Virus record (IMG/VR): IMGVR_UViG_2563366806_000001
Location: 1 to 15,507 of that record
From: a virus
Taxonomy: Duplodnaviria > Heunggongvirae > Uroviricota > Caudoviricetes
DNA length: 15,507 bases
Strand: one strand, 5' to 3'
In this document: positions 2,541-5,005 of the stretch, one piece after another
Position numbering within the stretch: position 1 is the first letter of the stretch
Layout: each line of letters begins with the position of its first letter
Notes under the pieces: generated by a model
The model's database searches: none
What the model saw: the letters and a program-made list of their open reading frames with translations, nothing else
Told to the model about the DNA's origin: nothing
Made by a program: the position numbers and the translations under genes

Positions 2541-2666
2541 TAGATTGCTCTAATCTGGAGTCACCTGGCGTTTTCAGTATGGATTTTCTTTGGCGCGGTC
2601 TGGCCATTAGGGATCATGTTTGCTGCAACGTTTCTTCTGATGTGGGTATTCACCCTTCCAGGTGAT

Positions 2667-2707
2667 TTCTATAGAAAAAAAGCCAGACATTGATACAATC
2701 GCTGCGG
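2667..2707 (+). promoter_or_regulatory. putative hok/mok promoter and mRNA 5' end
   Basis: -10-like TACAAT at 2694-2699. Predicted transcript 5' end GGTGCTTGAGG (2707-2717) resembles hok-family mRNA 5' ends. Confidence 0.35.
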
Positions 2708-2761
2708 GTGCTTGAGGCTATCTGCTTCAGGCATTACCCGAAAAGCAGATAGAAGAAAGCC

Positions 2762-2827
2762 CCAGATAACATTACGCGTCCTGCAAGACGCTTAACATTA
2801 ATCTGAGGCCATATCTATGCTTAGCAT
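2762..2827 (-). ncRNA. sok: candidate Sok-like antisense RNA (antitoxin); ends approximate
   Basis: Minus-strand promoter: -35 TTGACC (complement of 2856-2861), 16-bp spacer, -10 GCTAAT (complement of 2834-2839). The transcript would be antisense to the mok SD and start (ATG 2817). Weak hairpin GCGTC/GACGC around 2777-2792. Confidence 0.35.
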
Positions 2828-3023
2828 ACGTAGATTAGCCTCTTACCGACCAAAAGGTCAAGGAGAAGCAGGCTATGAAGCAGCAAAAAGCGATGTTAAT
2901 CGCTCTGATCGTCATCTGTTTAACCGTCATAGTGACGGCACTGGTAACGAGAAAAGACCTCTGCGAGGTACGAATCCGAACCGGCCAGACGGAGGTCACT
3001 GTCTTCACAGCCTACGAATCTGA
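2817..3023 (+). CDS. mok: Mok-like leader ORF overlapping hok in a different frame, 68 codons
   Basis: SD GAGG 2805-2808, ATG 2817, TGA 3021-3023 (7 nt before the hok stop). Nested arrangement is typical of hok/mok/sok loci. Confidence 0.5.
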   Translation: MLSIRRLASYRPKGQGEAGYEAAKSDVNRSDRHLFNRHSDGTGNEKRPLRGTNPNRPDGGHCLHSLRI

Positions 3024-3030
3024 AAGGTAA
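2875..3030 (+). CDS. hok: Hok/Gef-family type I toxin, 51 aa
   Basis: SD AAGGAG 2860-2865, ATG 2875, TAA 3028-3030. Hand translation: MKQQKAMLIALIVICLTVIVTALVTRKDLCEVRIRTGQTEVTVFTAYESER. Single hydrophobic helix plus the conserved RKDLCE..R.G..E..F.AYE tail of Hok/Gef/RelF proteins (closest to HokD/HokC as recalled). Below the ORF-track size cut-off. Confidence 0.85.
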   Translation: MKQQKAMLIALIVICLTVIVTALVTRKDLCEVRIRTGQTEVTVFTAYESER

Positions 3031-3042
3031 GAGACCTGGCGG

Positions 3043-3053
3043 GGAGAGATCCC
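3043..3053. repeat. IS186 target-site duplication, left copy
   Basis: GGAGAGATCCC, identical to 4392-4402. Confidence 0.75.
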
Positions 3054-4391
3054 ATAAGCGCTAACTTAAGGGTTGAACCATCTGAAGAATGCGACGCCTC
3101 GGTGCCTCGTTAAGACGATGCCTCGCGTTCTTCAATTGCGTTTTGTAGGCTGTCAGGGATACTGTCCCACGAATGGCCACCTGTAAGCTCCAGATGACCA
3201 TTTTTGTTATTCTCCACAACGAGTTAGTTCTTCTTTTCGGATCCGGCACTTCTGGGGGGGAAATCCAGCGATGGCTGGATTATGTCGTCAATTAAAAATG
3301 CGGCGAGTAGATTAGCAAATATCCACGCTTTCGCGAGTTCAGGTTCCTTTGCACGCAAAGCATCCAGGTGCAGCAAACTTTTGAGCCGCTTAAAAGCCAG
3401 TTCAATTTGCCATCGCAGACGGTAACAATCAGCCACTTGCTCTGCTGAATATTCATCTTCCGGTAATGATGTTAGCAATAGCACATGGCCCGCTGCTTCC
3501 AGCGTTTCCGCCTGAACTACTCGTCCTTTTCGACGATTCTCGCTGAGCAGTCGGGTTTTACTGATTAATGCTTTTTCGGGAGGAAGTGATACGGCAATGA
3601 GACGTGCCGGAAAGGGAGCTCCGGCTTTTTTATTACCTGAATTGCCTATCATTACAGTGGTTTCACCGTTCTTACCGCAATCCAGCCCGCGCAGAAAACC
3701 CATCATGTCAAAGCGCATTCCTTCTGCAGTTAACCAGCGCAATCCTCGCCAGTGAACCCGGACGATATAATCAGCTTCTCCAAAAGCAAGTGAGCGGATA
3801 CATTCGGGACGCGAACCGAATCCCCGGTCAGCAATGCGTATCTCGTCTGCCGTTTGCGCAAATCGGTCCAGCCGTTCAGCGTCTCTGCTGTCGGTTAGCT
3901 CAAAATCAGTGAACTGACAGGTATGAGGATCATATCCCATATGTAGTCGCCATTCAGCGCTGCCGCCCCCGGGCGCACTGATTGCTGTTCCATCGACAAG
4001 ACGCAATCTCTTTCCGCTTGTACAACCCGTAACTGCGGCGCGTACAGCAAGTGTTTGTGCGGCAAGTATGCCAAACCAGTCGGCGGCATTCCGCAGCCGC
4101 TTCAGGAGAGCCACGTCAGATAATGTTGCAACGTCATGGAGCTGAGCCCATGCAGTGACTTCACGTAATGACATCCCCCCGGGGCCGTAAGCCAGCCCCA
4201 GACGTAGCAGAGTTGCAGCATCACGAATTTCGCGGCGGCGGGTTAGAGCCCCGGCATTACGTGCCGAAGTATCCAGTTCTTCGGGCTTACCAATATGGGC
4301 CAGAATTGCTGACCAGTTATCGTGAGAGTAATTCATCGGCACGTTAAATCATATCAGGCGTAATACCACAACCCTTAAGTTAGCGCTTATG
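3054..4391 (-). mobile_element. IS186 insertion sequence (IS4 family), complete, 1338 bp
   Basis: Perfect 23-bp terminal inverted repeats CATAAGCGCTAACTTAAGGGTTG at 3054-3076 and (complement) 4369-4391; single transposase ORF; flanked by an 11-bp direct repeat. Confidence 0.9.
3224..4336 (-). CDS. insL: IS186 transposase, 370 aa from ATG 4336 (ORF track extends to GTG 4342)
   Basis: Protein MNYSHDNWSAILAHIGKPEELD...YRLRWQIELAFKRLK... recognised as IS186 InsL; fills the element between its inverted repeats. Confidence 0.9.
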   Translation of the reverse strand: MNYSHDNWSAILAHIGKPEELDTSARNAGALTRRREIRDAATLLRLGLAYGPGGMSLREVTAWAQLHDVATLSDVALLKRLRNAADWFGILAAQTLAVRAAVTGCTSGKRLRLVDGTAISAPGGGSAEWRLHMGYDPHTCQFTDFELTDSRDAERLDRFAQTADEIRIADRGFGSRPECIRSLAFGEADYIVRVHWRGLRWLTAEGMRFDMMGFLRGLDCGKNGETTVMIGNSGNKKAGAPFPARLIAVSLPPEKALISKTRLLSENRRKGRVVQAETLEAAGHVLLLTSLPEDEYSAEQVADCYRLRWQIELAFKRLKSLLHLDALRAKEPELAKAWIFANLLAAFLIDDIIQPSLDFPPRSAGSEKKN

Positions 4392-4402
4392 GGAGAGATC
4401 CC
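4392..4402. repeat. IS186 target-site duplication, right copy
   Basis: GGAGAGATCCC, identical to 3043-3053. Confidence 0.75.
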
Positions 4403-4426
4403 CGCCACTCTTCGTGTGTCAGGTAT

Positions 4427-4438
4427 CCTCAATGCACC
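4427..4438 (+). promoter_or_regulatory. displaced hok mRNA 3' fold-back (fbi-like) element
   Basis: CCTCAATGCACC is near-complementary to the predicted hok mRNA 5' end GGTGCTTGAGG (2707-2717). Now separated from the hok body by IS186. Confidence 0.35.
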
Positions 4439-4452
4439 CTTTCCTCTCCAAA

Positions 4453-4478
4453 TAAAAAAGCTCCCGAAGGAGCTTTAA
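4453..4478 (-). terminator. rho-independent terminator ending the minus-strand late operon
   Basis: Stem AGCTCC (4459-4464) / GGAGCT (4469-4474), loop CGAA. Plus-strand A-run 4454-4458 gives the U-tract for minus-strand transcripts; a short T-run on the plus side makes it weakly bidirectional. Confidence 0.6.
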
Positions 4479-4495
4479 AATACAAGGGATAACTC

Positions 4496-5005
4496 TTAAT
4501 CCCACTCAATCCAGTTGTAGACGATACGAAGTGACGGGCGCACAGCGGCAGTCACATCTTCGGTACTAAAGTCGATTGCATCACTGTAGATTTTGCAGTC
4601 CAACATTTCAATTGTTGTAGCAGCTTTTGTCACAGCGTTAACCCCGGAAGATTTGGATTCAGGGGTCGCAGCCATCGTGATATCAACATAGTCCTTCGCC
4701 GCAATGCGATCTTTAATGAACTGAAGAATATCGCCTTCGATAGTCTCCACGCACTGGACCTGGATTTCCCCAGAGTTTCGAATTGGACCGTGCTGGTTGA
4801 ACTTCACACCATTCGGACCATAGTCCTCCACATCCTCGCGGGTCATTTCAGGAATTTGCGACGTGCGAACCAGTACGCTGATATCTTCATGGCCTGCAAA
4901 AGTGAGCTGGAATTCAGAAGATACCAGTCGTTCGCCTTTGGCCGCGTTGGCAGTATAGCGGCCCTTAATAAATTTACGGTTTCCCTTAGTGTTATTGTGC
5001 CCCAT
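4496..5005 (-). CDS. late structural protein, possibly tail-tube-like, 169 aa
   Basis: Last gene of the co-directional late operon, downstream of the sheath gene and directly before the terminator. Size and aromatic C-terminus (RIVYNWIEWD) are reminiscent of contractile-tail tube proteins; assignment from memory, unverified. Confidence 0.4.
   Translation of the reverse strand: MGHNNTKGNRKFIKGRYTANAAKGERLVSSEFQLTFAGHEDISVLVRTSQIPEMTREDVEDYGPNGVKFNQHGPIRNSGEIQVQCVETIEGDILQFIKDRIAAKDYVDITMAATPESKSSGVNAVTKAATTIEMLDCKIYSDAIDFSTEDVTAAVRPSLRIVYNWIEWD

Follow-up and report, generated by a model that had tools for sequence, protein, structure and literature searches.

IS186 in the 3' hairpin of a hok/mok/sok toxin-antitoxin locus on a P1-type phage-plasmid backbone: probable effects on regulation and post-segregational killing

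Background

What becomes of a Hok toxin when an insertion sequence (IS) lands in the 3' untranslated region of its mRNA? The question is raised by IMG/VR virus record IMGVR_UViG_2563366806_000001 (Caudoviricetes), whose 15,507 nt we analysed as one stretch, hereafter the window, and in which a hok/mok/sok toxin-antitoxin locus on a P1-type backbone carries a copy of IS186 shortly after the hok stop codon. A preliminary examination confined to the letters and their open reading frames (ORFs), here called the sequence-only reading, had picked out this arrangement and asked whether the toxin is still regulated, constitutively silent, or de-repressed. The evidence assembled below points to a locus still under the control of its antisense RNA, Sok, but deprived of post-segregational killing; its state is probably one in which hok is transcribed and held by Sok, and in which the mRNA forms neither the closed fold nor the protective 3' stem.

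Results

IS186 sits in the loop of the GC hairpin that follows hok. The target, GGGG-AGAGAT-CCCC, is a perfect match to GGGG(N6)CCCC, one of the two forms of the published IS186 target motif GGGG(N6/N7)CCCC, at which insertion in either orientation is expected (PMC5009759). Excising the IS together with one copy of the 10-bp target duplication yields a sequence colinear with the IS-less P1-like phages MH422554 and MH160767, so that the comparison with related phages proposed by the sequence-only reading recovers exactly the predicted empty site. This reconstructed site holds the hairpin GGCGGGG-AGAGAT-CCCCGCC, whose stem (GGCGGGG/CCCCGCC) is intact in the empty-site relatives and split in the window; the insertion leaves the promoter, the tac element, mok, hok and the Sok unit intact. 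The earlier proposal that IS186 lies in the GC hairpin of the 3' untranslated region, and cuts the fold-back element off from the body of the transcript, is borne out by the IS boundaries, this reconstruction and the folds described below. Its figure of 12 nt past the hok stop is right for the duplicated target and wrong for the IS itself, which begins after 22 nt. The element is identical at 1339 of 1339 positions to both IS186A and IS186B of K-12, encodes a transposase recognised by Pfam (DDE_Tnp_1, E=1.6e-26) and by NCBIfam (IS4 family transposase, 133 bits, above cut-off), and is labelled IS4-like, IS421-family in public plasmid records.

Minimum-energy folds indicate what the insertion separates. 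In the reconstructed uninterrupted mRNA the 3' GC hairpin has a predicted stability of -19.3 kcal/mol, and the tac element at the 5' end pairs with the fbi element downstream of the hairpin over 12 bp with one bulge, a duplex of -21.9 kcal/mol against -15.4 +/- 2.4 kcal/mol for shuffled tails. A second predicted helix joins 2817-2830, including the mok start codon, to 4413-4426; a 'dcb' label considered for the latter segment was dropped, the R1 dcb box lying near the Sok promoter (PMC9841398). The tac element is invariant across 67 loci and the sequence of 4413-4439 is conserved in 59 of 62, and equivalent complementarity recurs, correspondingly placed, at hokC, hokE and prophage hok loci, with a compensatory change in hokE. 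Because this pairing matches what the R1 model calls the tac/fbi fold-back (PMC9841398), the sequence-only reading had identified the right candidate; the pairing of its 4427-4438 holds in the reconstructed mRNA, and only the extent needs correction, to 4427-4439.

In the window tac and fbi are held apart by the 1339-bp IS and the 10-bp duplication, which move the pairing partners in 4413-4439 and the terminator behind them 1349 bp away, beyond terminator-like signals internal to the IS. The first of these signals on the hok strand is a weak hairpin with a U-run, about 175 nt beyond the hok stop and a candidate 3' end for the interrupted transcript; a stronger terminator-like site follows at 3606-3631. 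A predicted transcript of 2706-3207 has a 5' domain that folds as the 3'-trimmed mRNA does, with tac pairing locally with 2725-2739. As a substitute for fbi within IS186, the best duplex with tac (3095-3108) reaches -17.9 kcal/mol, within the range of the shuffled sequences, and the minimum-energy fold does not use it; no convincing fbi substitute was found in IS186.

Upstream of the hairpin the locus is a complete Hok/Gef toxin-antitoxin locus, and what the sequence-only reading had described there (a 51-residue Hok-family toxin with mok, a promoter and an antisense unit) is upheld by Pfam, the ORF list, a promoter scan, Rfam model RF01794 and alignment to sokC and sokE; with the Pfam and Rfam matches on one side and relatives carrying an empty version of this very site on the other, the ORF and leader do align with the Hok family, and the relatives do not show an unrelated sequence at this site. 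The hok product scores 78.7 bits against the Pfam Hok/Gef family (cut-off 22), whereas its match to an NCBIfam Hok-family subfamily, at 49.5 bits, stays under the cut-off of 73; public records label the gene HokD. The hok ORF is undamaged at all full-coverage related loci, 16 of 16 with the IS and 53 of 53 without it. Relaxed constraint on Hok after insertion was considered, private amino acid changes being present in approximately 5-6 of 16 IS-bearing copies and 4 of 53 empty ones; several of these come from low-coverage metagenome contigs and they are not relied on. The mok frame, whose 68-residue product has no match in Pfam, occupies the expected overlapping position upstream of hok and is a putative means of coupling to hok translation. 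The promoter-like site before it is invariant across 65 related loci and places the start of the hok mRNA near 2706, where the Rfam model also begins. That model (114.9 bits, E=7.2e-27; gathering score 59) carries the name 'sok', yet matches the hok-encoding strand.

The locus also appears to encode a Sok RNA in cis, antisense to the mok initiation region and served by a promoter of its own. The predicted fold of this RNA has an energy of -32.9 kcal/mol, and its promoter-like site, read from the sequence, agrees in position with the 5' ends of the annotated sokC and sokE RNAs; this site fell under the threshold of the generic promoter scan. Compared with the hokC and hokE leaders, the Sok-encoding region contains an additional hairpin formed by an 18-nt insert at 2775-2792 (CGCGTCCTGCAAGACGCT), which appears as an insert in the Rfam alignment too.

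Table 1. Features of the hok/mok/sok::IS186 locus, in window coordinates
Feature	Position	Strand	Description and basis
hok/mok promoter-like site	2672-2699	+	TAGAAA, 16-nt spacer, TACAAT, TG extension; sigma-70-like; promoter scan
tac element, hok mRNA 5' end	2706-2717	+	GGGUGCUUGAGG
hok mRNA leader including Sok target region	2706-2880	+	Rfam RF01794, full-length match
Sok antisense RNA, inferred extent	~2825->2749	-	alignment to annotated K-12 sokC and sokE
mok frame	2817-3023	+	68 aa, overlaps hok; ORF list; kept in most related loci
Sok promoter-like site	2832-2861	-	-35 TTGACC 2856-2861; -10 TAATCT 2832-2837; 18-nt spacer; read from sequence
hok toxin gene	2875-3030	+	51 aa; Pfam PF01848 HOK_GEF, E=2.4e-22
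Left arm and loop of 3' GC hairpin	3038-3052	+	GGCGGGGAGAGATCC; includes left duplication copy
10-bp target duplication	3043-3052 and 4392-4401		GGAGAGATCC
IS186	3053-4391	-	1339 bp; 23-bp inverted repeats 3053-3075 and 4369-4391
Weak hairpin and U-run inside IS186	3171-3207	+	candidate 3' end of interrupted hok transcript; folding
IS186 transposase ORF	3224-4342	-	convergent with hok; K-12-type ATG at 4336 gives 370 aa
Right duplication copy and right hairpin arm	4392-4406	+	duplication 4392-4401; arm CCCCGCC 4400-4406
3' partner of long-range pairing	4413-4439	+	minimum-energy folds of reconstructed mRNA
fbi fold-back element	4427-4439	+	CCUCAAUGCACCC
Bidirectional terminator hairpin between hok and convergent bplB operon	4457-4476		terminator scan (-); + strand fold also

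The same element occurs at the same place in two chromosomal hok loci of K-12, as the sequence-only reading had indicated. At hokC (gef)/mokC/sokC, IS186A is 100% identical to the window's copy, lies at the homologous position in the hairpin loop, is flanked by a 10-bp duplication (GGAGTGATCC there), has the same orientation, with its transposase convergent with hok, and displaces the fold-back element to its downstream side; unlike the window's locus, hokC is chromosomal, has different flanks and is without the 18-nt additional hairpin of the P1-type Sok region. At hokE/sokE the same IS (IS186B) occupies the same hairpin position with a 10-bp duplication (GGAGTAATCC); there the IS is reversed, the hok paralogue is more divergent and tac/fbi carries the compensatory change noted above. 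Because the flanks differ among hokC, hokE and the P1-type locus, we regard these as independent insertions. An origin of the window's arrangement by recombination with K-12 hokC::IS186 was rejected, since both flanks and duplications differ. The IS186 hot spots in fimA and menC (PMC5009759) resemble the present site in their G4-N6-C4 target, in receiving insertions in both orientations and in recurrent independent hits; unlike them, the target here is a functional RNA hairpin common to a whole gene family.

The locus lies in a P1-type backbone, as the sequence-only reading had held. The flanks are ~98-99% identical to Punavirus records annotated as KilA, RepL, BplB, baseplate/tail tube and tail sheath, and by comparison with P1 (NC_005856) the order is kilA and repL upstream, with bplB, pmgG and genes 21-23 downstream on the other strand; a parB-parA-repA end of the backbone was assigned from ORF sizes only. 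Between repL and bplB canonical P1 carries rlfA-rlfB-pmgF, in agreement with the sequence-only reading, which had placed rlfA and rlfB here, and the lineage of the window carries a small ORF and the hok cassette. Many relatives have the hok cassette and no IS, which makes the replacement of rlfA-rlfB-pmgF and the insertion of IS186 separate events, the replacement being the older. The same observation bears on the P1-like plasmid pSvP1 (Venturini et al. 2019, PMC6906374), in which IS186B is flanked by a direct repeat, GGATCTCTCC, that is the reverse complement of the duplication here, and in which rlfA, rlfB and pmgF are replaced by two ORFs, one of them described as an 'antibacterial toxin'. 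Its authors blame the IS for the loss of rlfA/rlfB/pmgF and mention neither hok, Sok nor the fold-back element; since that cassette is present in IS-less relatives too, the loss is not the work of the IS.

Some features of this neighbourhood stand beside the insertion itself. Directly after repL the P1 C1 operator Op55/Orlf (2544-2560) survives in its first 11 nt (ATTGCTCTAAT), and since similarity to P1 stops at ~2555, the left boundary of the cassette falls inside this operator. Relative to most relatives the window has a 143-bp deletion at 2566/2567, which removes the start of an 81-residue small hydrophobic ORF (MQSDFLQLAIAFAG...) that lies between repL and hok in relatives without the deletion; the deletion is shared by IS-bearing (4) and empty (5) copies. 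On the other side, the bplB late operon and the IS186 transposase (4342-5005, minus strand) are co-directional with only the terminator at 4457-4476 between them, and late-operon read-through would be sense to the transposase and, past the IS, antisense to hok. The terminator scan returned no strong minus-strand terminator between 3224 and 3053.

The arrangement is frequent. In PLSDB, 160 plasmids carry the IS in the window's orientation (matches covering >=80% of 2541-4495, IS included) and 34 carry it in the opposite orientation at the same junction; P1-type hok loci in that database number 216 empty and ~200 occupied. Of 75 loci sampled from IMG/VR, metagenomes and phage records, 19 carry the IS. 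Occupied copies are spread over at least 7 hok haplotypes, and the IS186 copies differ by 0-2 bases from the window's copy while their flanks differ by 1-3%, a pattern that fits recent, repeated insertion. Among 98 readable IS186 ends in the viral contigs of IMG/VR, 52 border a hok-family hairpin (P1, prophage, hokC or hokE type), the remainder lying mostly at other G4-N6/7-C4 sites, and in complete E. coli genomes hokC is occupied in ~990 of 5426. Counting independent insertions on a tree of the 2-kb flanks proved uninformative, with nearby sites showing all four allele combinations; because of this recombination no clean count can be given, and there were at least two events (one for each orientation) and probably many.

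Among the IMG/VR and metagenome contigs, the left and right duplications disagree at loci L017, L063, L078, L119 and L127 (a left GGAGAGATCC with a right GGAGTGATCC, for example), which suggests either homologous recombination between hok::IS186 loci by way of the IS or assembly chimeras across the repeat. The right duplication of L017 was considered as a join to a hokC-type chromosome and this was rejected, its flank being a P1-type hok allele with an AGTGAT loop; judged by its sequence, L017 is a recombinant or chimera of two P1-type IS-bearing alleles.

The hairpin sequences of the empty sites form a pattern of their own. Allele-specific 52-nt queries against PLSDB found the perfect right arm, CCCCGCC, at 51 empty sites and ~200 IS flanks, so that perfect G4-N6-C4 hairpins in P1-type hok loci are ~80% occupied. 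The variant arms CCTCGCC (71 empty), CTCCGCC (53) and CCCTGCC (15) each gave 0 IS-flank matches; a one-C deletion was found at 5 empty sites, its IS flanks not being resolved by the query. Most empty sites thus carry one of at least 5 independent changes in the C-run (CTCC, CCTC, CCCT, CCCCGT and the one-C deletion). Single C-to-T positions among the related P1-type loci L001-L078 are 3040, 3052, 4402, 4403 and 4405, and all substitutions are C-to-T on the sense strand, so that a G-U wobble keeps the RNA stem and the DNA target is broken. The variants are predicted to fold at between -16 and -17 kcal/mol; the perfect hairpin reaches -19.3 and a G-to-A control -12.4. Neither the PLSDB IS-flank queries nor the 75-locus sample yielded a substitution variant with the IS; that sample comprises 12 perfect empty, 44 variant empty and the 19 occupied sites, and wherever an occupied copy shows its right arm, that arm is perfect. 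When 3387 windows are compared by haplotype diversity, the one with the hairpin falls in the top 1%.

In a prophage hok family the IS186-carrying allele, GCGGGG-AGAAAT-CCCCGC, was never seen empty, and the empty sites are almost all GGCG[G/A]GGG...CCCTCGCC, with a wobble or a compensated pair. In lambdoid prophage loci (L148-L261) the hairpin takes the forms GGCGGGGG/CCCTCGCC, with a G-U wobble, and GGCGAGGG/CCCTCGCC, with an A-U pair that restores complementarity; the two forms resemble successive steps of a compensatory change and would point to selection on the RNA stem.

Discussion

On the reading we favour, hok transcripts would end within IS186, at or near the weak hairpin described above, and closure by tac/fbi would be impossible for such interrupted transcripts. 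If that closure fails, the 5' domain would take the fold of the 3'-processed mRNA, which is open and binds Sok. The GC stem that shields the processed mRNA from 3' exonucleases would be missing as well, and with neither closed fold nor GC stem the long-lived, inert mRNA pool needed for post-segregational killing would not be built. In plasmid-carrying cells Sok would bind the hok mRNA and lead to its degradation. The net outcome would be a harmless locus, expressed but kept down by Sok, with its addiction function lost and the toxin ORF a passenger.

This sequence of steps has precedents. The R1 hok/sok (parB) system, to which the present locus is likened by published description, has a Hok/Gef toxin, an overlapping mok, an antisense Sok and tac/fbi pairing, together with a GC stem just past the hok stop, which forms the 3' terminus of the processed mRNA (PMC9841398); unlike the window's locus, with its 3' stem split and fbi off the transcript, it is uninterrupted and its post-segregational killing is proven. 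Toxicity and the truncated mRNA are both lost in R1 hok through any of 19 single substitutions, each of which disrupts a C-G pair of the terminal 3' stem (PMC9841398). K-12 gef (hokC) is transcribed, and its mRNA is reported to stop within IS186 ~200 nt beyond the stop codon while antisense control persists (PMC3562002). A preprint (bioRxiv 10.1101/2025.08.07.668861), citing Pedersen and Gerdes, states that chromosomal hok loci did not mediate post-segregational killing. The arrangement is also viable, in that ~200 sequenced plasmids hold the insertion together with an intact hok ORF.

Several considerations weigh on the other side. The 3' end within IS186 is deduced from a weak hairpin with its U-run and from K-12 gef, and minimum-energy folds disregard kinetics. 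With an IS-derived 3' end the mRNA could be stable enough to permit some killing. The undisrupted Hok frame of the IS-bearing copies is compatible with recent insertion or with retained function alike, and since nearly half of P1-type hok loci are IS-bearing, the insertion can be at most mildly deleterious to the plasmid.

One alternative is a de-repressed toxin. Without the fold-back every hok transcript would be translatable from birth and the cell would rely on a continuous supply of Sok, making the locus a sharper addiction or abortive-infection module, or else a fitness burden; the tac/fbi stem is what keeps the mRNA untranslatable in the R1 model (PMC9841398), the 5' domain of the IS-interrupted transcript is predicted to fold like the processed, active mRNA, and the Hok ORF and Sok unit are conserved in IS-bearing copies. 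Such de-repression nevertheless seems unlikely to us, as the protective 3' stem is gone, and in R1 its breakage removes both truncated mRNA and toxicity (PMC9841398); the open mRNA, moreover, is the target for Sok binding and for destruction by RNase III, so that no reservoir would outlive Sok, and the arrangement is tolerated by K-12 strains and by the ~200 plasmids.

A second alternative concerns the reason for the insertion, which may have been favoured by selection, either as a means of neutralising a costly toxin or as a supply of portable homology or of a promoter. This would account for the occupation of ~200 of ~416 PLSDB loci and for the spread of IS-bearing copies, in either orientation, over 7 or more hok haplotypes, and the mismatched duplications at some IS186 copies suggest IS-mediated recombination. 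Against this, IS186 hits GGGG(N6)CCCC repeatedly without selection, mutation-accumulation lines having gained it 16 times independently at a single site (PMC5009759), and target-driven recurrence is therefore a sufficient explanation; the counts may, besides, be inflated by heavily sampled resistance plasmids. We judge selected inactivation to be distinctly improbable.

That the locus retains its function, through read-through of the whole IS186 and closure of the GC stem and tac/fbi around a 1.35-kb insert, is very improbable, for although both hairpin arms are kept by the duplication, fbi and terminator are unmutated in IS-bearing copies and the insertion point is a loop rather than a stem, the hok strand of IS186 holds terminator-like sites at 3171-3207 and 3606-3631, the mRNA of K-12 gef reportedly stops within the element (PMC3562002), and read-through would have to oppose the convergent transposase transcription. 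Because the internal signals differ in the opposite orientation, found in 34 plasmids, behaviour could depend on orientation. For the orientation in the window, a Sok-regulated locus without post-segregational killing remains the interpretation that these comparisons favour.

The pattern of hairpin alleles allows a further, tentative and on balance doubtful proposal, namely that the hok 3' hairpin of mobile elements is an IS186 hot spot that erodes itself, insertions using up the intact targets and mutations that spare the RNA structure letting others escape. Whether targets escape the preference of IS186 was raised as an open question by Lee et al. (PMC5009759). Erosion was not seen at chromosomal hokC, where an empty, perfect hairpin persists in 3535 of the 5426 complete E. 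coli genomes, and this lowers the probability that we attach to escape; recombination bars the counting of independent events and the sampling is biased.

Conclusions

The arrangement in the window is known in kind and common, being present at K-12 hokC and hokE and on ~200 PLSDB plasmids, and having been described structurally for pSvP1 (PMC6906374); the P1-like IS-bearing matches include resistance plasmids (e.g. KX880944). The hairpin of hok mRNA is the commonest IS186 landing site found on E. coli phage and prophage DNA, as judged by the readable ends in IMG/VR. If hairpin escape were true, it would provide natural evidence for a functional RNA structure reshaped to evade a site-specific transposon, IS-disrupted hok alleles would be short-lived, and the locus would offer a tractable natural conflict between transposon target preference and RNA structural constraint. 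For annotation, an intact Hok ORF alone is insufficient to score such loci as functional toxin-antitoxin or stability systems, as the hok addiction or defence module of many P1-like phage-plasmids is probably disabled, and frequently so, by IS186 in the manner of K-12 hokC and hokE.

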